From Acidimicrobiales bacterium (GTDB lineage: Bacteria > Actinomycetota > Acidimicrobiia > Acidimicrobiales > JAUJNH01), in assembly GCA_030448245.1 (NCBI GenBank), contig JAUJNH010000008.1:53588-117587 (forward strand): DNA of 64,000 nt, given 5' to 3'. The translations under genes and the position numbers were made by a program. Shown in pieces: positions 51,350 to 64,000 of this stretch (its first letter is position 1; each line of letters begins with the position of its first letter). The notes under the pieces are model-generated. The model was not told where the DNA came from, made no database searches, and worked only from the letters and a program-made list of their open reading frames with translations.

Positions 51350-51654
51350 CCGGCTCACCCCGGTCGGGCGCGTCGGCGAACTCCGGGTGGTAGACGGTCT
51401 CCGGTGCCGGCGGGGAGAGGCTCCGGGCGGCACAGAGGTGCGAGAGGGTCTGCTCCCAGCGGGCGCCGTCCATCGAACCGGGCGCAGCACCGTTGGAAGA
51501 CGGAGGGAGCCAGCAGCCGCCAGCCCTCGCGGGCGTCGTCCTCGTCGGCCTCCGGGTACCGGCGCCGCAGGTACGGCAGGTGGTAGCCGGGCAGTCAGGT
51601 GGGGCAGTAGAAGCTCAGCCGGAGCCGCTGTCGAACCTTCCCGTCGGATCCCAT
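51350..51654 (-). pseudogene. Degenerate, internally deleted ABC substrate-binding (NMT1/THI5-like) gene with in-frame TGA
   Basis: MGSDGKVRQRLRLSFYCPT*LPGYHLPYL joined to RRRYPEAD..GWRLLAPSVF(fs)..GSMDGARWEQTL..ETVYHPEF. Confidence 0.45.
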
Positions 51655-51796
51655 GAAGCTCCCGCCGTGCCGCACATCGGCTCGGGGTCGAATACTGCTG
51701 TGGCCCCCGAAGGGCGTCAAGCGTGCGCTGCATACCGAGCGACGCCCGCCCACAAGCGCTTCGGCTTGCGAAGCTTCGTGCCGTAGCGTTGCCGAG

Positions 51797-54700
51797 GTGG
51801 CAGGCGAGGCGGATCGGCTGGGGTGGGGACGCCAGCTGCTGCGCTGGCTGGCCCCCCACCGGCTGAACGTCGGCATCGCCCTCGGCGCCGGGCTGCTGGG
51901 CACCGGGGTGGCGGGGCTGACGCCCCTGGTGCAGAAGGTGGTGGTCGACGACGTCACCCGCGGCACGGGCGACGCCATCGCGCCATGGCTCCTGCTGCTG
52001 GTGGTCGCCGGCGTGGCCCGCTTCGCCCTCGCCTACGTGCGCCGCTTCTTCGGCGGCCGGGTGGCGGCCGACGTGCAGTACGACCTGCGCACGGCCCTGT
52101 TCCGCCACGTGCAGCGCCTCGACGTGGCCAGCCACGACCAGCTCCAGACCGGTCAGCTCGTCGCCCGAGCCACGACGGACGTCAACGCGCTCCACCACCT
52201 GCTGAGCCTGCTGCCCCTGGTGTTCGGCAACGTGCTGCTGTTCGTCATAACCCTCGGGATCATGCTGCGGCTGTCCCCGCTGCTGACGCTGGTCGTCTTC
52301 GGCGTGGTGCCGCTCATGGCCCTGGCCACGGACCGGGTCCGCCGGACGATCTTCCCGGCCAGCTGGGATGCCAGCCAGCACGCCGGCGTGGTGGCTGGCA
52401 TCGTCGAGGAGTCGGTCTCGGGGGTGCGGGTGGTGAAGGGCTTCGGCCAGGAGCGGCGCGAGCTGGCCCGCCTCAGCCAGGGTGCCGCCGACCTGCTGGC
52501 CAGCCGCACCCGCCTGGTCCGCCTGCAGGCCCGCTTCGGCCCCACGCTCCAGGTGATCCCGATCCTGGCCCAGGTGGCCGTGCTGGCCGTCGGCGGCTGG
52601 CTCGCCATCCGGGGCCGCATCACCCTCGGGACCTTCCTGGCCTTCAACGTGTACGTCACCTCGCTGGTCGGCCCGGTCCGCACCGCCTCGTTCCTGGTGG
52701 CGGCCAGCCAGCAGGTCAAGGCCAGCATCCAGCGCCTCACCGAGGTGCTCGACGCCAACCCGCAGGTGGCTGACCGGCCGGGCGCAGCGCTGCTGACCAC
52801 CGCCGACGGCGCCCTCGAGCTCGACGACGTCACGTTCGGCTACACCCGGGACGAGGCCGTGCTCGACTCGTTCAGCCTCAGGGTGGAGCCGGGCGAGACC
52901 GTGGCGCTCGTGGGTACCAGCGGCTCCGGCAAGAGCACGGTGGCCCTGCTCCTGCCCCGCTTCTACGACGTGCACGCCGGGGCCGTCCGCATCGGCGGGA
53001 CCGACGTGCGCGACGTGACCCTCGAGTCGCTGCGGCGGCGGATCGGCGTGGTGTTCGAGGAGCCGTTCCTGTTCTCCGACACGATTCGGGCGAACATCGC
53101 CTACGGCCGCCCTGACGCCACCGACGACGAGGTCGAGGCGGCGGCCCGTGCGGCCGAGGCCCACGCGTTCGTCTCGGAGCTGCCCGACGGGTACGACAGC
53201 GTCGTCGGCGAGCAGGGCCTGACCCTGTCAGGCGGCCAGCGCCAGCGAGTGGCCCTGGCCCGGGCCCTCCTCACCGACCCCCAGGTGCTGATCCTCGACG
53301 ACGCCATGTCGGCGATCGACAGCCGGGTCGAAGAGGAGATCCTGGCCACCCTCTCGCGGCTGCTGGCCGGCCGGACCACGGTGCTGGTCGCCCACCGACG
53401 CTCGACGCTCCGGTTGGCCGACCGGATCGCCGTCGTCGACGGGGGCCGGGTGGTGGCGATCGGGACGGCGGACGAGCTGGAGGCGACCAGTCCGCTCTAC
53501 CGGGCGCTGCTGTCGGGGCCGGACGAGGACGTCGAGCACGCCGCCGACGTCGAGGAGGCAGACGTCGCCGCTGGCCGGGATGCCGCCCCCTGGGACGGCC
53601 GGCCGACGGCCACCCTGTGGGCCCGCCGCGAGGTGTCGGCGGCCGAGGCCCTCGCCGCTGCGGGCCGCCTGCCGAAGCCGGACCCGACCGCCACCTCCCG
53701 CCCAGGAGGCCATGGGCACGGCAGGGGCGGCGGCATGCGGGGACCGGCCACATCGGCGCCTCGATGGTGGCCACGCCCGAGCTGCTGACGTCGGTCGCGG
53801 CCCTGCCTCCGGCCACGGACCGTCCGGACGTGGGGGTCGACGAGCTCGACGTGGCCGAGCCGTCGTTCTCCTTCTGGCGCTTCGTGCGCCGGTGGCGACG
53901 GCTGCTGGGCTTCGGCGTCGGCCTCGTCGTGGTCGACTCGGTCACCAACCTCCTCGGGCCGACCGTCGTCCGCTACGGCGTCGACAACGGGGTCGAGCCG
54001 GGGCGGACCGGCGTGCTGTGGGCGGCCACCGCGGTGGCCCTCCTGGTCGCCGTGATCTCGTGGGGCAACGCCATCGTCGAGCAGCTCGTGACGGGCGCGA
54101 CCGCCGAGAAGGTCCTGTACGCGCTGCGGGTGCGGGTGTTCGCCCACCTGCAGCGCCTGTCGCTCGGCTACTACGACCGCGAGATGGGCGGCCGAATCAT
54201 GACCCGCATGACGACCGACGTCGACGCCATGCAGCAGCTGCTGGCGACCGGCCTGGTGCAAGCGGTCGTCAGCGGCGTCACCTGCAGCGGCGTGGCCGTG
54301 GCGCTCGTCCTGATGAGCCCGCCGCTGGCCCTCGTCACGTCTGCCGTCGTCCCGCCGCTGGCCCTCGCCACCTGGCTGTACCGCCGGCGGGCCCACGCGG
54401 CCTACGACCGGGCCCGCGAGCGGGTGGCCGAGGTCAACGCCGACTTCCAGGAGAACCTCTCGGGGGTCCGGGTGGCGCAGGCCTACAGCCGGGAGGAGCG
54501 CAACGAGGCCCGCTTCGCCGGGCTGGCCGACCGCTACCGGCGGGCCCGGGTCGACGCCCAGCGCCTCGTCGCCCTGTACTTCCCGTTCGTCGAGATGCTC
54601 TCGGAGCTGGCCAACGCCCTGGTGCTGGGAGCCGGAGCGGTGTTCGTGACCCGCGGCACCACCACGACGGGCGAGCTCATCGCCTTCCTCCTGTACCTCA

Positions 54701-55596
54701 ACCTGTTCTTCGCGCCGATCCAGCAGCTGTCGTCGGTGTTCGACACGTGGCAGCAGGCCCGCATCTCGATCGGCCGGATCGAGGGGCTCCTGGCCCTGCC
54801 CTCGGGCACGCCGCCGGCCGATCACCCGGTCGACCCGGGGCGCCCGACCGGCCGGATCGACCTGGTCGGCGTCCGGTTCCGCTACGACGGCACGGCCGAC
54901 GAGGCACTGCGGGGCGTCGATCTCACCATCGAGCCGGGCCAGACCGTCGCCTTTGTCGGTGAGACGGGCGCCGGCAAGTCGACGGTCCTGAAGCTGGTGG
55001 CCCGCTTCTACGACGTCACCGGCGGCGCCGTGCTCGTCGACGGCGTCGACGTCCGCCAGCTCGACCTCACGGCCTTCCGCCAGCAGCTCGGCGTGGTGCC
55101 GCAGGAGCCGTTCCTGTTCGCCGGGACGATCCGCGACAACATCGCCTACGGCCGCCCGGACGCCACCGAGGCCGAGGTCGAGGCGGCGGCCCGGGCGGTC
55201 GGTGCCCACCCGGTGGTGGCCAGCCTGCCGGGCGGCTACACCCACGTCGTCGGTGAGCGCGGCCGCAGCCTGTCGGCCGGGCAGCGCCAGCTGATCGCCC
55301 TGGCCCGCGCCCTGCTTCCCGACCCGCCGATCCTCCTGCTCGACGAGGCCACGGCCAACCTCGACCTGGCCACCGAGGCCAGGGTGACCGAGGGGATGGG
55401 GGTCGCGGCCCGTGGCCGCACCACCCTCCTGATCGCCCATCGCCTGCCCACCGCGGCGGGAGCCGACCGCATCGTGGTCCTCGACGGCGGCCGGGTGGTC
55501 GAGTCGGGCACCCACGCCGAGCTGCTGGCTCGCGGCGGCCGCTACACCCAGCTGTGGCAGGCGTTCGCCGGAGCCGACGCCGGCGCCGCCGCCTGA
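51797..55596 (+). CDS. Fused (TMD-NBD)x2 ABC exporter, Rv0194-like; frameshift ~53745
   Basis: Two TMDs; [22 protein letters not shown] and [22 protein letters not shown]; the two overlapping ORFs join by one indel. Confidence 0.92.
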
Positions 55597-55651
55597 CCGA
55601 CACACACCAAGAAAAAGAGCAGCGGACAGCCCGATCGGCCGGGTCGCTGAG

Positions 55652-55657
55652 TAGGTT
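55652..55657 (+). promoter_or_regulatory. Leaderless -10 element for the S8 peptidase/DGC operon
   Basis: TAGGTT six nt upstream of GTG 55664, the same geometry as other leaderless genes in the window. Confidence 0.6.
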
Positions 55658-55663
55658 GGGCCG

Positions 55664-57512
55664 GTGGCCCCACTGAGACGACTTCGCCGCGGACGAGCCT
55701 GGCTGGCTGGCCTGGTCGTGGCCGTCGGCCTCGTCCCGGTCACCGTCGGTCTCGACGTCCCCGGCCGTCACGCCGGCCCGGCCATCGATCCCTCCCTGAC
55801 CGCCACGAGCCGTGAGGTTCCGGTCGTGGTGCAGGCGCGGCCTGGCCGTGTCGACCACGCGGCGCGCCGGGCGGCCGCGGCCGGTGGCCAGGTCGGAGCG
55901 CCCCTCCCCATCGTCGACGGCTTCGCGGCCCGGCTCTCCGGCCGGTCCCTCGCCGCGCTCGCTGGTTCGCCGGACATCGTGGCCATCACCCTCGACAGGC
56001 AGGGGGCGTTCACGTCGAGCGGGAGCCAGCTGAAGCCTCCCGTCGAATCGCCCTTCGTTCAGGTGACGGGCGTCGGCGATGCGCGGGCGAGCGGGTTGCG
56101 AGGAGGCGGCGTCACGGTGGCGGTGCTCGACACCGGCATCTCGCCGATGCCCGATGTGGCCAGCCGCACCGTCCACGGCCCCGACCTTTCCGGGGAGGGG
56201 ACGCTGATCGACTCCTATGGCCACGGCACGGTCATGGCCGGCATCATCGGCGGGGACGGAGGCGACTCGGCCGGCCGGCGGGCCGGCGTGGCTCCCGACG
56301 CCCGGCTGGTGGCGGTCAAGGTGGCCGGGCGGAACGGCGCCGTCGACGTCTCGACCGTGCTCGAGGGCATGGCCTGGGTGGCCACCTACCGGCAGGCGCT
56401 CGGCATCCGGGTGCTGAACCTGTCCTACGGCACCCGCTCCACCCAGGACCCTCGCCTCGACCCGCTCAACTTCGCGGTGCAGCGCCTCTGGGCGCAGGGT
56501 GTGGTCGTGGTGGCCGCCGCCGGCAACGGCGGGCCGGGGCCAGGCACGATCACCAAGCCAGGCGACGACCCCGTGGTGCTGACCGTCGGCGCCTACGACG
56601 ACCGGGGCGACACCTCCCCCCGCAACGACCTGGTTCCGGCCTGGTCGTCGCGGGGCCCGACGGCCCAGGGCGTCGCCAAGCCCGACCTGGTCGCTCCCGG
56701 GCGCACCGTGGTCGCCACCCGCTCCTACGGGTCGGCGGTGGAGCAGGAGAACCCCGAGTCGCTGGTATCGCCCAGCTACATCAAGGGCAGCGGCACCTCG
56801 GAGGCCGCGGCGGTCACCTCGGGCCTGGTGGCGCTGCTTCTCCAAGCCCATCCGACCTGGACGCCCGACCAGGTCAAGCAGGCGCTCACCTCGACCGCGG
56901 TCCCACTGGCCACCGCCGCGCCGGCCGCCTCCGGCCATGGGCGGGCCCGGGTGGACCGGGCGCTCCAAGCCGATCCTGGGCCTGCGGTGCGCCAGCGCCT
57001 GACGGCCACCGGCCTCGGCTCGCTGGAGGCCAGCCGGGGCGGAGCCCACCTGGTGGCCGCCTGCGGCCTCATCGTGGGCGAGAAAGACGTGCTCTGCCAG
57101 CCCTGGAACCCGTCGGCCTTTGCCGGCGGCACCTGGACCGGCGGCACCTGGACCGGCGGCACCTGGACCGGCGGCACCTGGACCGGCGGCACGTGGACCG
57201 GCGGCACCTGGACCGGCGGCACCTGGACCGGCGGCACCTGGACCGGCGGCACCTGGACCGGCGGCACCTGGACCGGCGGCACCTGGACCGGCGGCACCTG
57301 GACCGGCGGCACCTGGACCGGCGGCACCTGGACCGGCGGCACCTGGACCGGCGGCACCTGGACCGGCGGCGCCTGGACCGGCGGACCGACCGCCGGCTGG
57401 ACCGGAGACAGGTCGTCCCGGCGGGCCGACGGTCGGCCCGGCACGCTCACCGTTCTGGGGTGACCGCCCCAAGCGGGGCCAGGCCGTCGCCGGCGAGCGC
57501 TCGGCCGACTAG
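55664..57512 (+). CDS. Secreted S8 (subtilisin-like) serine peptidase with C-terminal (GGTWT)n array; called ORF stops at 57463, probable frameshift extends it to 57512
   Basis: Signal peptide and propeptide; [27 protein letters not shown] catalytic motifs; 16x GGTWT + GGAWT; alternate frame gives [19 protein letters not shown] abutting the next GTG. Confidence 0.93.
57125..57379 (+). repeat. 15-bp tandem repeat GGCGGCACCTGGACC x17
   Basis: 15 identical units, one synonymous variant (ACG, unit 5) and a final GGAWT unit. Confidence 0.98.
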
Positions 57513-60040
57513 GTGGCTGCGACCCACGCAGAAGACCGGGCCACGCTGCACCGGTTCGTGGGGTTCACCACGGTGCTGGGGGTGGCCTGCATGGCGATGG
57601 CGGCCGCAACCCTGGGCGGGTCGGCACCGCCACTCCCGTGGCGCCTGGCAGCCGTCGCCGCAGGCTTCGCGACCGCCGACGCCGCCCTGGTGCACCTCCG
57701 CTTCGGTCACGACCGCTGGTCCTTCAACTGGTCCGAGGTCGTGGTGGTCGTCGGGCTGACGGTGCTGCCACCGGCGTGGATCGTCCTCGCAGCCCCCGCC
57801 GGGGTGGCGGCTGCCAACCTTTGCCTTCGTCGGCCCCCGGTGAAGGTCCTCTTCAACGTCGCCGTCGCCGCCGTCGGCACCGCTGCTGCCTGGCTGACGT
57901 ACTCGGCCGTCGAGGGGATGGCCGACGGCGCCGGGATCGGCCCGACGACGCTCCGGCTCGTGGCCGCCTCCCTCGCCTCATGGGCCGTCACGACCGCCGC
58001 CGTCTCGTTCGCCGTGGCCACCTCGCAGAACGTGTCCGTCGGCTGGGTGCACGCCAAGGCCTTCCGCATGAACCTCGTGGTCTGGGTCGGCAACACCGCG
58101 ATGGGCTGCCTCGTCGTCGGCATCGGCGCCACGGAACCCACGGCCCTGTACGCCATCCCGGGCCTCGCGGCCATGCTCGCCGTGATCTACCGGGGCTACC
58201 TGGTGGCGCTCGAGGAGCGCGACACCTGGGAGCGGCTCCAGGCGGTGTCACGCCAGCTCCTGGGTGCGGACGCCGAGAGCATGGCGGAGGTGGCGATCGA
58301 TGGCGCGCTCGCGCTGCTCCAGGCCGAGTTCGCCGACTTGATGCTGGTCGAGAACGAGCGCGACCGCGCCGCCATCGGTTGGCGCCGAACCGCCGGCGGC
58401 CAACTCGATCGCCTCATGGGGGACCCGTTCGACCTGACCCCCGGCAGCTGGGGCCGGGTGCTCTCCGACCGGGCTGCGTTCACCATCGACCTCTCGTCGT
58501 CGACCGGGCCCCAGCACGACGAGCTGCGTGCCATGGGGCTGACGTCGCTCAGCGCCGCCCCCTGCTCGTGCACGGCCGCTGCCTGGGCACCTTGCGGATC
58601 GGCTTCCGAGGCCCCGTGCGGCTGCGGGCTCGGGAGCGGCAGGTGCTGGAGACGTTCGCCAACCACATCAGCGCCGCCGCCAACGCCGTCCAGCTGTTCG
58701 AGCGGCTCCGTTCGCTGGCCCTGTTCGACGCGCTGACCGGCCTGCCCAACCGGGCCGAGCTGACGGGGCGCCTGCGCGACGCCGTGGCCGGCGACGGGGT
58801 CGTGAGCGTGCTGTTCCTCGACCTGGACCGGTTCAAGGTGGTCAACGACTCGTTGGGCCACCAGGCCGGAGACCGGGTGCTGCAGGAGGCGGCCTCCCGC
58901 CTGCGTGCCGCCCTGCCCGAGGGAGCCGTCGCCGGGCGCTTCGGCGGTGACGAGTTCGTGGTGGTCTGGCCAGGCATGGCGGACGAGGCCGTGGCCGCCG
59001 ACGTGGCCGCCCGGCTGGCCGCCGCGGTGGCGCAGCCGATCGAGGTGGACGGCAGCCAGCTGCTGCTGACGGCCAGCGTCGGGGTCGTCGTCGCCCCCGG
59101 GGGCAGCGCCACCCCGGCCGGCCTCCTGCGCGACGCCGACGCCGCGATGTACCTGGCGAAGGAGCGGGGGCGTGACCGCGTCGAGCTGTTCACGGCCGCG
59201 GTGCGCACCACCGCGGTCCGCCGCCTCGAGCTGGAGAACGAGCTGCGTGCAGCCCTGGAGAGGTCAGAGCTGGTCGTGCACTACCAGCCGATCGTCCGCC
59301 TGCGGGACCGCCGGGTGATCGGGGCCGAGGCGCTGCTGCGCTGGCACCACCCGCAGCGGGGAGTGGTACCCACGAACGAGTTCGTCGCGGTGGCCGAGGA
59401 GACGAAGCTGATCCTGTCGCTCGGCGCCTGGGTGCTGGACGAGGCCGTGGGCAGCCTCCGGCGGTGGGACGAGGCGACGGCCGAACCGCTCGGGGTCTCG
59501 GTGAACCTGTCGGCCCGCCAGCTCAGCTCGTCCCGCCTGGTCGACGAGGTGGTCTGCACGCTCTCCCGGGCCGGGGCCGATCCGGCCCGTGTCACGTTCG
59601 AGGTGACCGAGTCCTCGCTGGTCGACCTGGCCGGCGAGGCGGTGGGGAACCTCGGCCGGTTGCGAGCCCTCGGCTGCACCATCGCCCTCGACGACTTCGG
59701 GACGGGCTGGTCCTCGCTGTCCTACCTCCAGCGCCTGCCGGTCGACTGCCTGAAGCTGGACCGCTCCTTCGTGGCCCGCCTCGACGAGGACGGCCGGGAC
59801 CGCGCCGTCGTCGGCAGCCTGGTGAACCTGGCCCACGCCCTCGGCCTGGTCGTCGTGGCCGAGGGGGTCGAACGGGAGGCCCAGCTCGACGTGCTCCTCG
59901 ACTTCGGCTGCGACGCCGCCCAGGGCTTCCTCCTGCAGCCGCCGTGCACCGCCGCCGACCTGCTGCAGGCCGTCGGCCAGCCCGGTGGCTGCTGGCCGGC
60001 CGCATCGGCCACGCCGGTCCCCCTCTTCCGCAGCGCCTGA
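57513..60040 (+). CDS. Multi-TM sensor-GAF-GGDEF-EAL c-di-GMP enzyme (frameshift ~58560)
   Basis: ~6-7 TM N-terminus, GAF-like segment, DALTGLPNR, DLDRFKVVNDSLGHQAGD, RFGGDEF, YQP..GAEALLRW, IALDDFGTG, LKLDRSF, VVAEGVE, QGF. Confidence 0.93.
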
Positions 60041-60060
60041 ACGACCGGGGCCGTCCCGCC

Positions 60061-60717
60061 TCACAGGCGCCAGTCCACCGGCTCCCGACCCGCCTCGACC
60101 AGGGCGGCGTTGGCCCGGCTGAAGGGCCGGCTGCCGAAGAACCCGTTGCTGGCCGACAGGGGTGACGGGTGGGCCGACTCGAGGACGACGTGGCGGCCCT
60201 GGTCGACCAGTGCCCGCTTGCGCCGCGCCGAGGCCCCCCACAGCACGAACACGACCCGTTCGGCCTTGGCGTCGACCGCCTTGATGACCTCGTCGGTGAA
60301 GGTCTCCCACCCCCGGCCCTGGTGGCTGGCCGCGGCGCCGCCCCGCACGGTGAGCGTGGTGTTGAGCAGGAGCACGCCCTGGCGGGCCCAGGGCTCGAGG
60401 CTGCCGCTGCGGGGCGGCGGGATGCCGAGGTCATCCTGCAGCTCCCGGAAGATGTTGCGGAGCGACGGCGGGAGCGCCACGCCGGGGCGGACGCTGAAGG
60501 CCAGGCCGTGGGCCTGCTCGGCACCGTGGTACGGGTCCTGGCCGAGGATCACGACCTTGGTCGCCGCCCGCGGCGTCAGGTGCAGGGCGGCGAAGACCTC
60601 GGCCGCCGGAGGGTGCACGGGGTGCTGGTCCCGCTCGGCGGCCACGAAGGTCTGCAGCTCGGCCCAGTACGGCTTGGCCAGCTCGGCCCCGAGCACCGGG
60701 TGCCAGTCGGTCTTCAC
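60061..60717 (-). CDS. ung: Uracil-DNA glycosylase (family 1)
   Basis: VVILGQDPYH, AHGLAFSV, PPSLRNI, GVLLLNT, SAHPSPLS. Confidence 0.97.
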   Translation of the reverse strand: MKTDWHPVLGAELAKPYWAELQTFVAAERDQHPVHPPAAEVFAALHLTPRAATKVVILGQDPYHGAEQAHGLAFSVRPGVALPPSLRNIFRELQDDLGIPPPRSGSLEPWARQGVLLLNTTLTVRGGAAASHQGRGWETFTDEVIKAVDAKAERVVFVLWGASARRKRALVDQGRHVVLESAHPSPLSASNGFFGSRPFSRANAALVEAGREPVDWRL

Positions 60718-60742: not shown

Positions 60743-61240
60743 TCAGGCGGCTTGGGTCAGGTACGGCTCCCACGCCGGGTCGATCCGCCCGACGCCGACC
60801 ACAAGCCACCGGGTGCCGCGAGGGACCGTGGGCGTGGTGCGCAGGGTCCACCCGAGCTCGGCCAGGAGGCGGTCGCCCTTGCGGCCGTTGCACAACCGGC
60901 AGGCGGCCACCACGTTCTCCCACTCGTGGTGGCCGCCTCGCGAGCGGGGCACGACGTGGTCGACGGTGTCCGCGCTCCTGCTGCAGTAGGCGCACCGGTG
61001 GGCGTCACGGGCGAGGAGGGCCCGGCGGGTGAGGGGCAGGCGGGCCCGGTAGGGGACCCGCACGTAGGTGGTGAGCCGGATGACCGAGGGGATGGGCAGG
61101 GCGGTCGACGCCGAGCGCACCACGCCGCCGCCGGCCTCGATGATCTCGGCCTTCTCGGCGAGCACCAGCACGATCGCCCGCTTCAGCGGGACGACGCACA
61201 GCGGCTCGTAGCTGGCGTTGAGGAGCAGGGTGCCCTTCAT
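60743..61240 (-). CDS. HNH endonuclease (HNH_5-type)
   Basis: LLLNASYEPL, PSVIRL, RDAHRCAYC, TVDHVVPRSRGG..WENVVAACRLCNGRKGD. Confidence 0.93.
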   Translation of the reverse strand: MKGTLLLNASYEPLCVVPLKRAIVLVLAEKAEIIEAGGGVVRSASTALPIPSVIRLTTYVRVPYRARLPLTRRALLARDAHRCAYCSRSADTVDHVVPRSRGGHHEWENVVAACRLCNGRKGDRLLAELGWTLRTTPTVPRGTRWLVVGVGRIDPAWEPYLTQAA

Positions 61241-61261
61241 GCCCGGCCGGCCCAGAACGAC

Positions 61262-61284
61262 AAAGGCCGCCCACATGGGCGGCC
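61262..61284 (-). terminator. Terminator/attenuator-like hairpin in the HNH leader
   Basis: Minus strand GGCCGCCC-ATGT-GGGCGGCC followed by TTTGTCGTT, about 20 nt before the HNH ATG. Confidence 0.6.
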
Positions 61285-61509
61285 GGCGGTACTTGGGAGG
61301 CGGAGCGGGGCTGCGTGCGCCCTCCGCCGCCGCCGTGGCGCGCCGTGCTGCTCGCTCCGATCCCCCGTCGGCCAGCGGGCTGCCACGGCCCGAACGATAC
61401 CGGCGCCGGCGGGGCGCCGCCGACCATATGCCGCTGCACGGGAAGCCACTGGCCCTGAACACCTAGCATTCGCCCTTCGGGTGGCTCATCCCGAGGACTA
61501 GAGGAGCGC

Positions 61510-62835
61510 GTGGTGGGTGAGGTGGAGAGAGATGGAGGGCCGGCATCCGGCCGCCGGACCATCCCGGCGCCGGGTCGCGGTGGCTCCGTCGCGCTGGTCA
61601 CGCTTCTCGTCGTCCACCTCGTGCTCGCCGGCCCGGCCGGCGCCCAGAACCCCCCGGCCCCGCCGCCCGTCCCGGTCACGGCGCCGCCGCTGACCACCCC
61701 CCTGGGCGCCGACGAGAACCTCCGGGCCCGGACCCTGGCCGAGGTGGCCGCAGCCAAGAAGGCCCTGAGCGCCGCCCAGCGGGCCGAGAACCAGACCCGC
61801 CAGAAGGCCGCCGACCTCGACAAGGCCCTGGCCGGGTTCGAGGGCCAACGGGCAGCCCTGGCCGGCGAGGAGCGGGTGGCCGCCGACCGGCTCGAGGGCA
61901 CCCGCAGCCGGCTGCGGACCGCGGCCGTCAGCGAGTACATCAGCGGCGGCAAGACGACCATCGCCAACCAGCTGCTGCGCTCGGTCAGCCTCGAGGAGTT
62001 CACCCGCAACCGCGTCTACGGCGCCGCCGTGCTCCAGAGCCAGCAGCGCACGCTCGCCACCTACCGCGACCAGCTGTCCAAGGTGACGGCGGTCACCTCG
62101 ACCCTCGGCCGCCAGGTCGACCGGGCCAAGGCCGACCGCGGCCTGATCCTGCAGGAGCTCGAGGCGCTGGTGGCACAGCGGGCCCTGCGTGAGCAGGAGC
62201 TGGCGCAAAAGCAGATCCTCAACCAGCTGGCCACCGCGGGCGCTCCCGTCCTCCCGAGCGACATCCCGGCCCTCGTCCTCGACGCCTACGTCCGCGGTGC
62301 CGCCGCAGCCAACCGTCGCACGCCCGGGTGCCGCATCCACTGGTCTGCCCTCGCGGCGATCGGGCGCACCGAGTCGGGCCACGCCCGTTCCGGCGGCGCC
62401 TCGCTCACGCTGACCGGCGACGTGACGCCCCGCATCCTCGGCCCCCGGCTCGACGGGAACGGCTTCGCCTACGTCGGCGACACCGACGGGGGGGCCCTCG
62501 ACGGCGACCTCGAGCTGGACCGGGCGGTGGGGCCGATGCAGTTCATCCCGTCCACCTGGAAGGGGCTCGGCGAGGACGGCAACGGCGACGGGAACCGGGA
62601 CCCGAACAACATCTACGACTCGGCCACGGCCGCCGGCATGTACCTGTGCCGCTCCCGCCAGGCACTCGACCTCGACGAGAACCTCTACAACGCCGCACTC
62701 AGCTACAACCGCAGCACCACGTACGCGGCGCTCATCGTCAGCACGGCGCGCGAGTACATCAACCTGAACCTCGCGGGGTTCCCGCCTGGGCCGCCGCCAT
62801 CGCCGTCTCCCGCCGTCCCGGCGGCCGCTCCATGA
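61510..62835 (+). CDS. Secreted coiled-coil + lytic murein transglycosylase (MltB/SLT_2-like)
   Basis: WSALAAIGRTESGH, DTDGGALDGD..DRAVGPMQFIPSTW, DGNGDG..DPNNIYD, YNRS. Confidence 0.9.
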   Translation: MVGEVERDGGPASGRRTIPAPGRGGSVALVTLLVVHLVLAGPAGAQNPPAPPPVPVTAPPLTTPLGADENLRARTLAEVAAAKKALSAAQRAENQTRQKAADLDKALAGFEGQRAALAGEERVAADRLEGTRSRLRTAAVSEYISGGKTTIANQLLRSVSLEEFTRNRVYGAAVLQSQQRTLATYRDQLSKVTAVTSTLGRQVDRAKADRGLILQELEALVAQRALREQELAQKQILNQLATAGAPVLPSDIPALVLDAYVRGAAAANRRTPGCRIHWSALAAIGRTESGHARSGGASLTLTGDVTPRILGPRLDGNGFAYVGDTDGGALDGDLELDRAVGPMQFIPSTWKGLGEDGNGDGNRDPNNIYDSATAAGMYLCRSRQALDLDENLYNAALSYNRSTTYAALIVSTAREYINLNLAGFPPGPPPSPSPAVPAAAP

Positions 62836-64000
62836 ACAGCCGGCGGCGGGCTCGCTCCCGCGGGGCCTCGTCGTCGGCCTTCTGGCGCTCCTCGTCTGCG
62901 CCACCACGGGGCCGGCGATGGCCCAGACCACCGACCGAACCCGGTCCGACCACGACCACGGCGGCCCCCGTCACCACGGCGGCGCCTCCCACCACCCAGC
63001 CGCCGGCCACGAGCCCGCCGACCACCCAGCCCCCGGCGACCTCCCCGCCCGCGACGTCCCCGCCCGCCACCGTGCCGCCGACCACGGCGCCGCCACCGAC
63101 GCCGGCTGGCGGGCCGGCTCCCGCGCCCCTCCCCCGCCCCCACCTTCCGGCGGCCCGGCGCCGGCCGCTCCCGCCGCGCCGCGACCCGTCGACACCAGGG
63201 CCGAGGACAGCAGCGAGGAGCCGCCGCCGCGGATGCCGCCCAGGCCGCCGAGCGCCGGTTGGCCGTCCTGGAGGCCTAGCAGGCCGCGCTCAAGCGGACG
63301 TTCGCGGCTCTGCACGCCGACGAGGCCGCCGCCGCCCAGAAGCTGGTCGAGCAGCGCCAGAACATGCGGACCCGCGCCGTCGCCATCTACGTGTCCGGGC
63401 CCGTGAGCCGGTCATCCCGGCCGGCGACGACATCCACGAGTTCGGCCGCCGGCCCGGGTGCTGGTCCAGGCCCTGCACGCAGCCGACCGGCGCACCCTCG
63501 ACCGCTACCTCGACGCCAAGAAGGCCGCCGGGTCGACGTGGACGCCATCGTCGACCGCCTCGAGGACCTGAACGGCAAGGTGCTGGCCGCCCGGGCCCAG
63601 ACCGAGAACAAGGCGGCGCAGACCCAGAGCGGCTACCGGAGCGTCAGCACCGCAAAGGCGGGCGGCCGGATGGCGGCTTCGCCTTCCCGGTGGCCGAGCC
63701 CCACAACTTCGGCACCTTCGCCCCCGCAGCGGCGGGCGGCTGCACGGGCGAGAGCGGTACCAGCTACTACTACGCCCACCTCTCGGCGTTCGCCATGAAC
63801 GTGTTCGCGCTGGTCGAGGCGGGCGACGTGGTCGGCCTCGTCGGGAACACCGGGAACGCCATCACCACCCCACCGCACCTCCACTTCGAGATCCATCCCG
63901 GGGGCGGACCGGCGATCGACCCCACCCCATCCTCAAGGCCGCCGACGACGCCACCCGGCAGGCGGCGCCAAGCAGCCAGGGGCGGCCACCACCACACCGA
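62832..64000 (+). CDS. M23 family metallopeptidase with Thr/Pro linker and coiled coil (multiple frameshifts; end unresolved)
   Basis: ATGA coupling to the transglycosylase; YYYAHL, VEAGDVVGLVGNTGNA, PPHLHFEIHPGGGPAIDP near 63770-63925. Confidence 0.75.
   Translation, partial: MNSRRRARSRGASSSAFWRSSSAPPRGRRWPRPPTEPGPTTTTAAPVTTAAPPTTQPPATSPPTTQPPATSPPATSPPATVPPTTAPPPTPAGGPAPAPLPRPHLPAARRRPLPPRRDPSTPGPRTAARSRRRGCRPGRRAPVGRPGGLAGRAQADVRGSARRRGRRRPEAGRAAPEHADPRRRHLRVRAREPVIPAGDDIHEFGRRPGCWSRPCTQPTGAPSTATSTPRRPPGRRGRHRRPPRGPERQGAGRPGPDREQGGADPERLPERQHRKGGRPDGGFAFPVAEPHNFGTFAPAAAGGCTGESGTSYYYAHLSAFAMNVFALVEAGDVVGLVGNTGNAITTPPHLHFEIHPGGGPAIDPTPSSRPPTTPPGRRRQAARGGHHHT

Follow-up and report, generated by a model that had tools for sequence, protein, structure and literature searches.

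We analyzed a 64,000-nucleotide stretch of DNA from Acidimicrobiales bacterium (NCBI GenBank assembly GCA_030448245.1, contig JAUJNH010000008.1, positions 53,588 to 117,587 of the forward strand), referred to here as the window, in which a gene for a subtilisin-family (S8) protease lies directly ahead of a gene for a membrane sensor with GGDEF and EAL domains. The protease ends in a chain with tryptophan (Trp) at every fifth residue, and the membrane domain of the sensor resembles the MASE9 family. The two genes are a conserved two-gene module, with the protease standing directly ahead of one sensor type across many actinobacteria. On balance, and from sequence comparison, we favor the view that the pair is a sensory module of Actinomycetota in which the exported Trp-chain protease would be the outside partner that supplies the input of the MASE9-like sensor. 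An earlier reading of this DNA, made from the letters of the sequence (the sequence-only reading), had proposed that the protease cuts its own tail into identical Trp pentapeptides, or displays it, as the ligand of the adjacent sensor. The coupling of protease and sensor is borne out by adjacency and by the swapping of outputs; the evidence on the pentapeptide mechanism is mixed. Positions below are those of the window.

A protease-profile scan of one genome per species yielded 80 loci, 64 of which had at least 1,000 nt after the S8 open reading frame (ORF) and form the basis of the count; the other 16 stand outside it. The membrane part of the window's sensor was matched directly downstream of S8 in 61 of the 64 loci by tblastn, and a membrane-domain profile matched a same-strand ORF directly downstream in all 64, with 27 rows of that profile coming from those same loci. 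In relatives, 27 of 66 downstream ORFs had their first in-frame start −4 to +15 nt from the S8 stop. ORF clustering found no other gene family common to more than 25 of the 80 loci. Most loci are from metagenome-assembled genomes (MAGs) of related orders, and kin are not independent.

We also scanned 301 sampled Actinomycetota genomes separately for the membrane domain and for the Trp array. The membrane-domain profile matched 141 genomes, often several times per genome, and in 20 of the best 30 sensor-domain loci the gene directly upstream was an S8 gene ending in (Wxxxx)n. The array scan used no homology: it sought eight TGG codons 15 nt apart, a pattern present in 76 genomes, often in several copies. 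The reversed pattern, run as a control, matches some genomes as well, where arrays repeat other codons every 15 nt. Since it is therefore not a clean null, 14 array sites were confirmed by fetching. All 14 were the C termini of S8 ORFs, 43 to 50% identical to the catalytic domain of the window, and 13 had a sensor-domain ORF within a few bases downstream; at the remaining site, L138, it lies 1.3 to 1.9 kb on. Both genome tallies include genomes flagged as unpublished (G187, G127, G041, G058, G277, G306, G212, G088, G264, and G159; eight of them in the array tally). Among the best 30 loci, those from unpublished genomes are L104, L114, and L120, with the protease, and L121 and L123, without it; none of the 14 fetched sites comes from an unpublished genome. 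The predicted linkage of repeat-bearing S8 genes to one membrane input domain thus held by three approaches (64 of 64, 20 of 30, and 13 of 14 loci).

The membrane domain is joined to more than one kind of output, as had been anticipated: GGDEF-EAL, PAS-histidine kinase, and GAF-histidine kinase. Sorted by output, the downstream ORFs comprise 37 of GGDEF-EAL type, 22 histidine kinases, and 8 that are cut or unclassified. By Pfam, the short sensors have the order GAF-PAS-HisKA-HATPase (10 of 10), and five of five sensors from a distant clade have GAF-HisKA-HATPase; a sixth is GAF-PAS-kinase. One kinase-type module, that of L084, belongs to the complete genome of an Acidothermaceae isolate. A membrane-domain tree was built from 61 loci plus the window (62 rows), with loci of <150 bits or <200 profile positions excluded. 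On this tree, output type changes five times by parsimony, at least two of the changes being forced by well-supported branches; shuffled output labels need 17.8 changes on average. The window domain is most like kinase-type ones (39% to that of L027), though its own output is GGDEF-EAL. Such swapping of outputs behind one input domain is typical of sensory input modules. Because the kinase and GGDEF-EAL parts are both cytoplasmic transmitters, the signal would run from outside to inside. No response regulator for the kinase versions stood out in neighbor clustering, and no further search for one was made.

As assembled, neither gene is in one frame. The protease ORF runs from 55664 to 57463 on the forward strand (599 amino acids), and the sensor occupies two frames (57513 to 58736 and the frame of 57638 to 60040). 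Logan contigs of four DNA runs from two studies were compared with the window over 57390 to 60100; runs X1 and X2 are from one study, possibly that of the source sample, and X4 and X5 are from the second. All four runs have two bases (CG) behind 57450 and one C behind 58557 that the window lacks. The CG insertion unites the S8 frame with the tail frame and adds one Ala codon, as homologues have, and the C insertion unites both sensor frames into a single ORF. Both genes are therefore intact, the frameshifts being errors of the window assembly. The probable indel suspected by the sequence-only reading was real, and its statement that the protease stop abuts the sensor GTG holds in the corrected frame: the TAG at 57510 to 57512 is followed directly by the GTG at 57513. 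The two indel errors fall within 1.1 kb, and other apparent frameshifts in the window may share this cause. A further C insertion at 60050 (a single run) and small deletions near 59522 to 59531 were seen in single contigs only. The strain of X4 and X5 has the same gene pair, with some 60 base differences over 2.7 kb.

The protease is a member of the S8 family by its Pfam match (PF00082, Peptidase_S8; 167.4 bits against a gathering threshold of 21.8, residues 147 to 417). Its catalytic motifs begin at residues 156 (DTG), 187 (HGT), 287 (GNGG), and 377 (GTSEA). The residues D156, H187, N288, and S379, in the order D, H, N, S, do not vary in an alignment of 24 homologues, nor do these four columns in a larger one of 120, so the intact catalytic motifs described earlier are confirmed. 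The N terminus is probably a signal peptide or signal anchor, judging from the translation and the alignment consensus. A word-indexed search returned 3,524 protease homologues at an E value of ≤1e-3 among 8,000 scored candidates. The best 120 are 44 to 77% identical, come from Acidimicrobiales, Mycobacteriales, and Frankiaceae MAGs, and nearly all finish in (WTGxx)n arrays, where xx is SA, SS, AA, AS, NS, GT, etc. Homologues carry the names "serine protease AprX" or "S8 family serine peptidase" at their source. The nearest curated S8 model is that of the type VII secretion system mycosin (TIGR03921), which gave 154.1 bits against a cutoff of 278.75. Mycosin is thus the closest named S8 model and is actinobacterial; unlike mycosin, the window protease lacks a membrane anchor at its C terminus, and we noticed no ESX genes alongside it.

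AlphaFold models of two homologues (P0004 and P0012), made from 120 sequences, predict a subtilisin fold with a propeptide, with a predicted local distance difference test (pLDDT) score of >90 over core and propeptide. Foldseek gave 3afg, ProN-Tk-SP, as the best match of the homologue fold (E value of 1.4e-25), and the propeptide family Inhibitor_I9 matched right at its cutoff in homologue P0052 (21.3 versus 21.2). After the array, homologues have a conserved tail with the consensus FLTAFWG.RP..G..V.GE.S.P. In the two models, this tail scores pLDDT 92 to 93 and 78 to 94, with a short strand at the LTAF part. A 20-residue peptide can score so high in no other way than by packing on a folded body, so the tail is predicted to pack onto the folded protease core. 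The array would therefore be pinned at both ends, as a closed excursion from the protease. Distant clades do not have the conserved tail, and the proteases there end at the last Trp.

The array itself agrees with the earlier count, which gave 16 copies of GGTWT and one of GGAWT at the protease end. The GGTWT units start at 57125, and the single GGAWT is at 57365 to 57379. Tandem Repeats Finder placed the DNA repeat at 57123 to 57384, with a period of 15 nt, 17.5 copies, and 98% matches. In the W register, 14 of 16 units are identical in DNA, which argues for recent expansion or homogenization of the window array, an exception among the arrays. Elsewhere, units with the same peptide differ in DNA (median identity, 0.86 over 15 nt). 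We compared unit with unit in the 74 of the 80 loci that have at least five consecutive in-register Trp units; the Trp position is fixed by the way in which the arrays were picked. In these 74 arrays, the median proportions of synonymous and nonsynonymous differences (pS and pN) were 0.47 and 0.16, with a ratio of 0.34, and pN/pS at unit positions 2 to 5 was about 0.56, 0.26, 0.55, and 0.67. As the DNA of the units has diverged and pN is low relative to pS, most arrays are old and kept by selection at the protein level, strongest on Trp and Gly.

In the clade of the window, the arrays have a median of 19 units, and 68 of 120 have 18 or 19. Of 163 odd units of the form W-x-G-G-x in arrays of at least 14 units, 77 stand at the tenth place, whatever the majority unit. 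The window array has no distinct tenth unit. Between clades, the Trp period is the sole constant: units vary (e.g., WSSSS), array length ranges from 2 to 37 units, and the residues between Trp are polar or small, with compositions from Gly/Ser rich to Ala/Arg/Gln rich. With so wide a range of composition, a single common regular fold seems unlikely. Two modules with different units occur in each of G179 (WDGRV and WHGNS), G192 (WSSSS and WDARE), G151, G123, G230, and G165.

The fold of the array was modeled on homologues P0004 and P0012 rather than on the window protein itself, and confidence was low (pLDDT of 30 to 57 in P0004, which has no hinge unit, and 32 to 49 in P0012, which has the canonical 9+1+9 array). 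The sequence-only reading had offered a structural Trp ladder or beta-solenoid as an alternative, which found no support in these two runs. Array and tail had no Pfam, NCBIfam, or Protein Data Bank (PDB) sequence match, and phmmer of the array against PDB sequences gave none at an E value of ≤1. The pentapeptide-repeat family (PF00805) folds as a right-handed four-sided beta-helix. It shares with the array a five-residue period and small residues two places ahead of the central hydrophobic one. The array had no Pfam match to PF00805 and no confident helix in the two AlphaFold runs, and in contrast to that family, the Trp units of other clades are Ala/Arg/Gln rich or Ser only, which does not suit one fold. 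The Trp residues of the tryptophan-repeat (WR) domain of NANOG are also five apart. According to the part of the source available (PMC9106587), the WR domain self-associates in a Trp-dependent manner into beta-rich, fibril-like gels; it is likewise a polar low-complexity chain with regular Trp that acts via Trp. That domain is eukaryotic and nuclear and drives self-association (PMC9106587). The array has no homology to it, and the likeness is one of pattern only.

Several other sequences resemble the array or derive from it. A weak DNA match elsewhere in the genome (G000:C18) was rejected, as it is not a Trp array. L135 (818 to 2836, reverse strand) has an Arg/Ala/Gln-rich Trp array with a subthreshold Pfam match to HC2 (histone H1-like; 31 bits versus 40), an effect of composition. 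The long antisense ORFs at 56776 to 57450 and 55067 to 57472 (both reverse strand) encode PPVQV or GPGAA repeats; they mirror the array in other frames and are not genes. The same antisense artifact formed a "family" in 79 of the 80 loci in ORF clustering.

For the sensor, hydropathy shows seven hydrophobic blocks in the membrane part, one of them of double length (residues 70 to 105). We read these as eight helices, with a topology suggested by charge distribution; both ends of the domain would be inside, because the GAF segment must be cytoplasmic. The membrane input domain described earlier is thus present, with eight helices instead of the approximately six or seven first proposed. Across 28 aligned domains, E75, K111, N115, and Y226 do not vary, and R107, F114, N194, and P216 nearly so. 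These conserved residues lie within helices or at their inner ends, and the outer loops are short and variable. The GAF-like segment noted earlier is supported by matches to GAF families in homologous sensors; the window's own split sensor halves gave no Pfam GAF match. The remainder is predicted to be a GGDEF diguanylate cyclase domain and an EAL phosphodiesterase domain, on the grounds of Pfam matches (136 and 252 bits) and of the intact motifs, which were located as claimed.

The sequence-only reading had asked whether the membrane domain is of a MASE type. The window domain did not match PF20972 (MASE9; gathering threshold, 24.3 bits) even at an E value of 0.1. The MASE9 model matched 9 of 28 aligned relatives at an E value of ≤0.1 (best, 6.9e-6), and L126, an unpaired relative, exceeded the cutoff (29.1 versus 24.3 bits). 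In the ESM Atlas, 23 of 30 feature matches were in clusters with 18 to 24% MASE9-bearing members (scores of 0.91 to 0.93). By alignment and hydropathy, the domain has the traits named by the MASE9 authors: its outer loops are short, polar residues lie in the membrane, and two short helices form a pair. We term it MASE9-like. In the available portion of the MASE9 paper (bioRxiv 10.1101/2021.11.05.467447), the family is described as having periplasmic segments that are short and poorly conserved, with charged residues in the core of the membrane; its authors propose that ligand is bound within the membrane and name no ligand. The likeness extends to the multihelix build, the short outer loops, the polar membrane residues, and the position ahead of HD-GYP, GGDEF-EAL, and other outputs (bioRxiv 10.1101/2021.11.05.467447). 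The differences are that no protease link is described for MASE9 in that portion of the paper (bioRxiv 10.1101/2021.11.05.467447) and that the window domain misses the Pfam model. Cofolding of sensor residues 1 to 250 with array residues 478 to 596 scored 0.00 in a run without controls, which is evidence in neither direction.

Table 1. Features of the protease-sensor pair, in window coordinates
Feature	Position	Strand	Basis or remark
TAGGTT hexamer, 6 nt ahead of the protease GTG	55652..55657	+	Read by eye
S8 (subtilisin-family) peptidase gene	55664..57512	+	Real stop at 57510-57512 once the 2 bases absent behind 57450 are restored
N-terminal Arg-rich segment followed by hydrophobic segment, residues 1-30	55664..55753	+	Translation and alignment consensus
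Peptidase_S8 catalytic domain, residues 147-417	56102..56914	+	Pfam and invariant columns
Conserved Cys...Cys loop, C467 and C478, just ahead of the array	57062..57097	+	Invariant alignment columns
Trp-periodic array, 16x GGTWT and 1x GGAWT	57125..57379	+	Translation and Tandem Repeats Finder
Assembly error, 2 bases (CG) absent behind 57450	57450..57451	+	CG present in 4 of 4 runs
Conserved C-terminal tail (FWG..RP..G..V.GE) and TAG stop	57453..57512	+	+1 frame in the window as assembled
Sensor gene: 8-helix MASE9-like domain, GAF, GGDEF, EAL	57513..60040	+	One ORF, counting the missing C behind 58557
Membrane domain, residues 14-233	57552..58211	+	Hydropathy and alignment; conserved polar E75, R107, K111, N115, N194, Y226
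GAF-like segment (approximate limits), split by the error at 58557	58263..58700	+	GAF families matched in homologous sensors
GGDEF domain	58718..59179	+	PF00990, 136.4 bits; GGDEF motif at 58943
EAL domain	59237..59944	+	PF00563, 252.2 bits; EAL at 59327, EVTE at 59600, DDFGTG at 59690

A leaderless promoter ahead of the pair, put forward in the sequence-only reading, was not recovered: a scan of 55400 to 60400 returned no promoter-like and no terminator-like sites, the consensus being E. coli-type and a poor test in high-G+C DNA. The TAGGTT hexamer may represent the −10 element of a leaderless transcript. Directly upstream are two ABC exporter genes (ABC_membrane plus ABC_tran) at 51653 to 53788 and 53617 to 55596 on the forward strand, whose assembled ORFs overlap by ~170 nt. 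The nearest protease homologue (L019) is preceded by a gene with 86% identity to the second exporter, and this flank is conserved only among near relatives. At Frankiales-type loci (L022, L060, L070, and L075), the module lies, by eye, downstream of prfB, ftsE, ftsX, a secreted protein, and smpB, a cell division and ribosome rescue neighborhood absent from the window. Downstream, a uracil-DNA glycosylase superfamily gene (Pfam UDG; 60061 to 60717, reverse strand) converges on the sensor gene. It is followed by a gene read by eye as a putative HNH endonuclease (60743 to 61462, reverse strand) and, on the forward strand, by putative cell wall enzymes, by eye a secreted transglycosylase-like protein and an M23-type peptidase (61510 to 62835 and 62328 to 63998). 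At L078, L083, L095, and L066, a second GGDEF-EAL gene, unpaired and with a membrane domain of the same type, is found ~4.5 to 9.7 kb upstream of the protease gene.

In the mechanism that we favor, the first gene would encode an exported subtilase with a signal peptide, an I9-like propeptide, an active S8 core, and a hydrophilic chain with Trp at every fifth residue. The second, starting at the stop of the first, would encode a sensor whose input is an eight-helix MASE9-like domain with almost no outside loops, followed by GAF. Its output would be the making and breaking of cyclic di-GMP (c-di-GMP) in the window, by GGDEF-EAL, and histidine kinase activity in relatives. The Trp chain would act as a multivalent string of membrane-seeking indoles, read by the membrane domain at or within the outer leaflet, and protease activity would set the signal that the chain carries. 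For this scheme, we infer export, cotranslation, protein contact, signal direction, and anything on cleavage. Tentatively, the chain may first be cut by the protease, into fragments that need not be pentapeptides; somewhat less probably, it may be read uncut, as a tethered ligand or dock. Self-cutting is plausible, as the protease is always active and the tail unfolded and Trp studded. A plain polyprotein is less likely in the window's clade, given the constant array length, the special tenth unit, and the docking of the tail. A ligand read within the membrane parallels the proposal of the MASE9 authors, because both domains have the same pattern of polar residues inside and short, variable outer loops, as far as the available part of their paper goes (bioRxiv 10.1101/2021.11.05.467447).

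Several observations weigh against the favored mechanism. Ten of the best 30 sensor-domain loci have no such protease upstream, and these 10 unpaired sensor genes share no upstream partner in ORF lists that are noisy. With these 10 of 30 unpaired, and with 141 of 301 genomes carrying the domain against 76 carrying the array, many proteins would use the sensor domain with no such protease. A single copy of the membrane domain is present in the window's genome. Within the genus, G001 has the protease at 68% identity; G002 (95% complete), G003 (67%), and G004 (92%) gave only distant S8 matches, and because the module was not found in these three of four other genomes of the genus, it appears dispensable. 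The short, poorly conserved outer loops leave little surface for an outside partner. The fixed architecture of the array and its docked tail suggest a built structure, the purpose of which is possibly unrelated to the sensor. L044 and L046, from one MAG, are recent paralogous modules with the same unit, the same odd units, and nearly identical arrays, although their membrane domains differ by ~0.44 changes per site on the tree. This pattern suggests gene conversion or strong constraint on the array, and a shared unit with differing sensors is a poor fit to strict one-unit-one-sensor specificity. Finally, the functional link is argued for by comparison throughout.

If the array instead serves as a sticky tail, it would hold the protease on the surface (at the membrane interface or wall glycan) or self-associate, and the sensor would read another cue, such as proteolysis products or envelope state, with the two genes coregulated. 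A hydrophilic chain with periodic Trp and variable composition, for which a common secondary structure is unlikely, would suit this role, and a fixed length with a hinge unit fits a built element. Self-association via Trp in the NANOG repeat domain, as given in the available part of its source, provides a parallel (PMC9106587). The many sensor domains that work without a protease are consistent with it as well. It leaves unexplained why arrays are found only on S8 genes preceding this sensor family (14 of 14 and 13 of 14) and why protease and sensor stay linked over class-level distances as output and unit change. A MASE-type domain also lacks an outside part that could bind proteolysis products. 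We consider this explanation unlikely. Slightly more doubtful is a self-processing pheromone polyprotein, in which the subtilase would cut its own Trp tail, the peptides would be read inside the bilayer by the MASE9-like receptor driving c-di-GMP turnover or a kinase, and differing units would be orthogonal "pherotypes." In its strict form, which we hold to be decidedly improbable, the protease would cut after each Trp, and identical pentapeptides would diffuse as a quorum or kin signal for the sensor. This form would account for an active protease, with invariant catalytic residues, that is always attached to an array without a confident fold (pLDDT of 30 to 57 and 32 to 49), for copy numbers from 2 to 37, for units that differ between modules of one genome as pherotypes would, and for the fresh expansion of one unit in the window, where 14 of 16 are identical in DNA. 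It also has a precedent in tandem Phr pheromones matured by extracellular proteases, so far as the consulted part of that source goes (PMC11343458). Yet lineages that differ in their units have array length and the odd tenth unit in common, and a bag of identical peptides needs neither. Unit positions 4 and 5 are weakly constrained (pN/pS of about 0.55 and 0.67), with the majority unit usually found among variants; the models predict that the conserved tail behind the array packs against the protease core; and the two modules of L044 and L046 share one unit within one genome.

Two further explanations are much less probable than any of these. Adjacency might be inherited gene order with no functional link, and the relatedness of most loci, noted above, gives this some footing; we regard it as very improbable. 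The surroundings are not conserved, any other neighbor being found in at most 25 of the 80 loci; upstream of the pair, ABC exporters in the window take the place of the prfB-ftsE-ftsX-smpB genes of Frankiales-type loci; and the pair persists at 42 to 50% protease identity, with different units and outputs. Least credible of all is inside-out control of the kind known from LapD and LapG, in which a membrane GGDEF-EAL protein would sense cellular c-di-GMP and hold or release an outside protease. LapD has a degenerate GGDEF-EAL region and a periplasmic domain and signals from inside to outside, and LapG is a periplasmic cysteine protease. The window resembles that system in encoding an outside protease and a membrane GGDEF-EAL protein side by side, and a homologous sensor aligns with the NCBIfam LapD model, at a score far under the cutoff of that model (141.8 bits versus 1,020). 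It differs in that the GGDEF, EAL, DDFGTG, and EVTE motifs are intact rather than degenerate, the sensors have no periplasmic domain and no HAMP match by Pfam and alignment, the protease is S8 rather than of the LapG cysteine type, and 22 classified sensors are histidine kinases without a c-di-GMP domain.

Among the known systems closest to the favored module, an exported Trp-chain protease feeding a MASE9-like sensor, are those in which a protease-made peptide is read by a polytopic membrane receptor, such as agr (AgrB/AgrD/AgrC) and com (ComD), with adjacent genes and peptide variants. Polytopic receptors of the AgrC/ComD type bind peptides. The likeness lies in a helix-bundle sensor input with small outer loops, in adjacent genes, and in sequence variants. 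Here, in contrast, the would-be precursor is a long array fused to the protease, the receptor is MASE9-like with GAF, and the output can be c-di-GMP turnover. In Bacillota, tandemly duplicated Phr pheromones are matured by extracellular proteases, with AprE, Epr, and Vpr cited for CSF, in the part of the source available (PMC11343458). The Rap-Phr systems thus share short peptides cut by extracellular proteases and several copies per precursor; they differ, per the same part of the source, in that Phr is imported and binds cytoplasmic Rap, that the precursor is small and separate, with 2 copies versus up to 37 here, and that the processing proteases are general housekeeping enzymes encoded elsewhere (PMC11343458). 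No description of the protease family or of the pair was found in the literature searched, which lay largely outside subscription journals. Nor did those searches yield a description of the architecture, with its array fused to a protease, MASE9-like receptor, and interchangeable outputs. Every domain other than the array belongs to a known family, and both kinds of system to which the module might be assigned are known: an accessory protein outside the cell that feeds a membrane sensor, and a polytopic receptor that reads a protease-made peptide.

In bacteria, numerous c-di-GMP enzymes and kinases begin with a MASE-type domain, and for most of these domains the signal has yet to be identified; in the present module, such a domain is paired with a constant partner gene. 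A chain in which every fifth residue is Trp is, in its own right, an uncharted type of protein segment. Were it cut into signals, the module would represent actinobacterial peptide signaling of novel design; were it read uncut, an extracellular enzyme would be coupled to a second-messenger switch in a new way. Should the pheromone polyprotein prove true, a class of ligand would be known for a MASE-type domain for the first time, and Actinomycetota would have a native form of peptide signaling.

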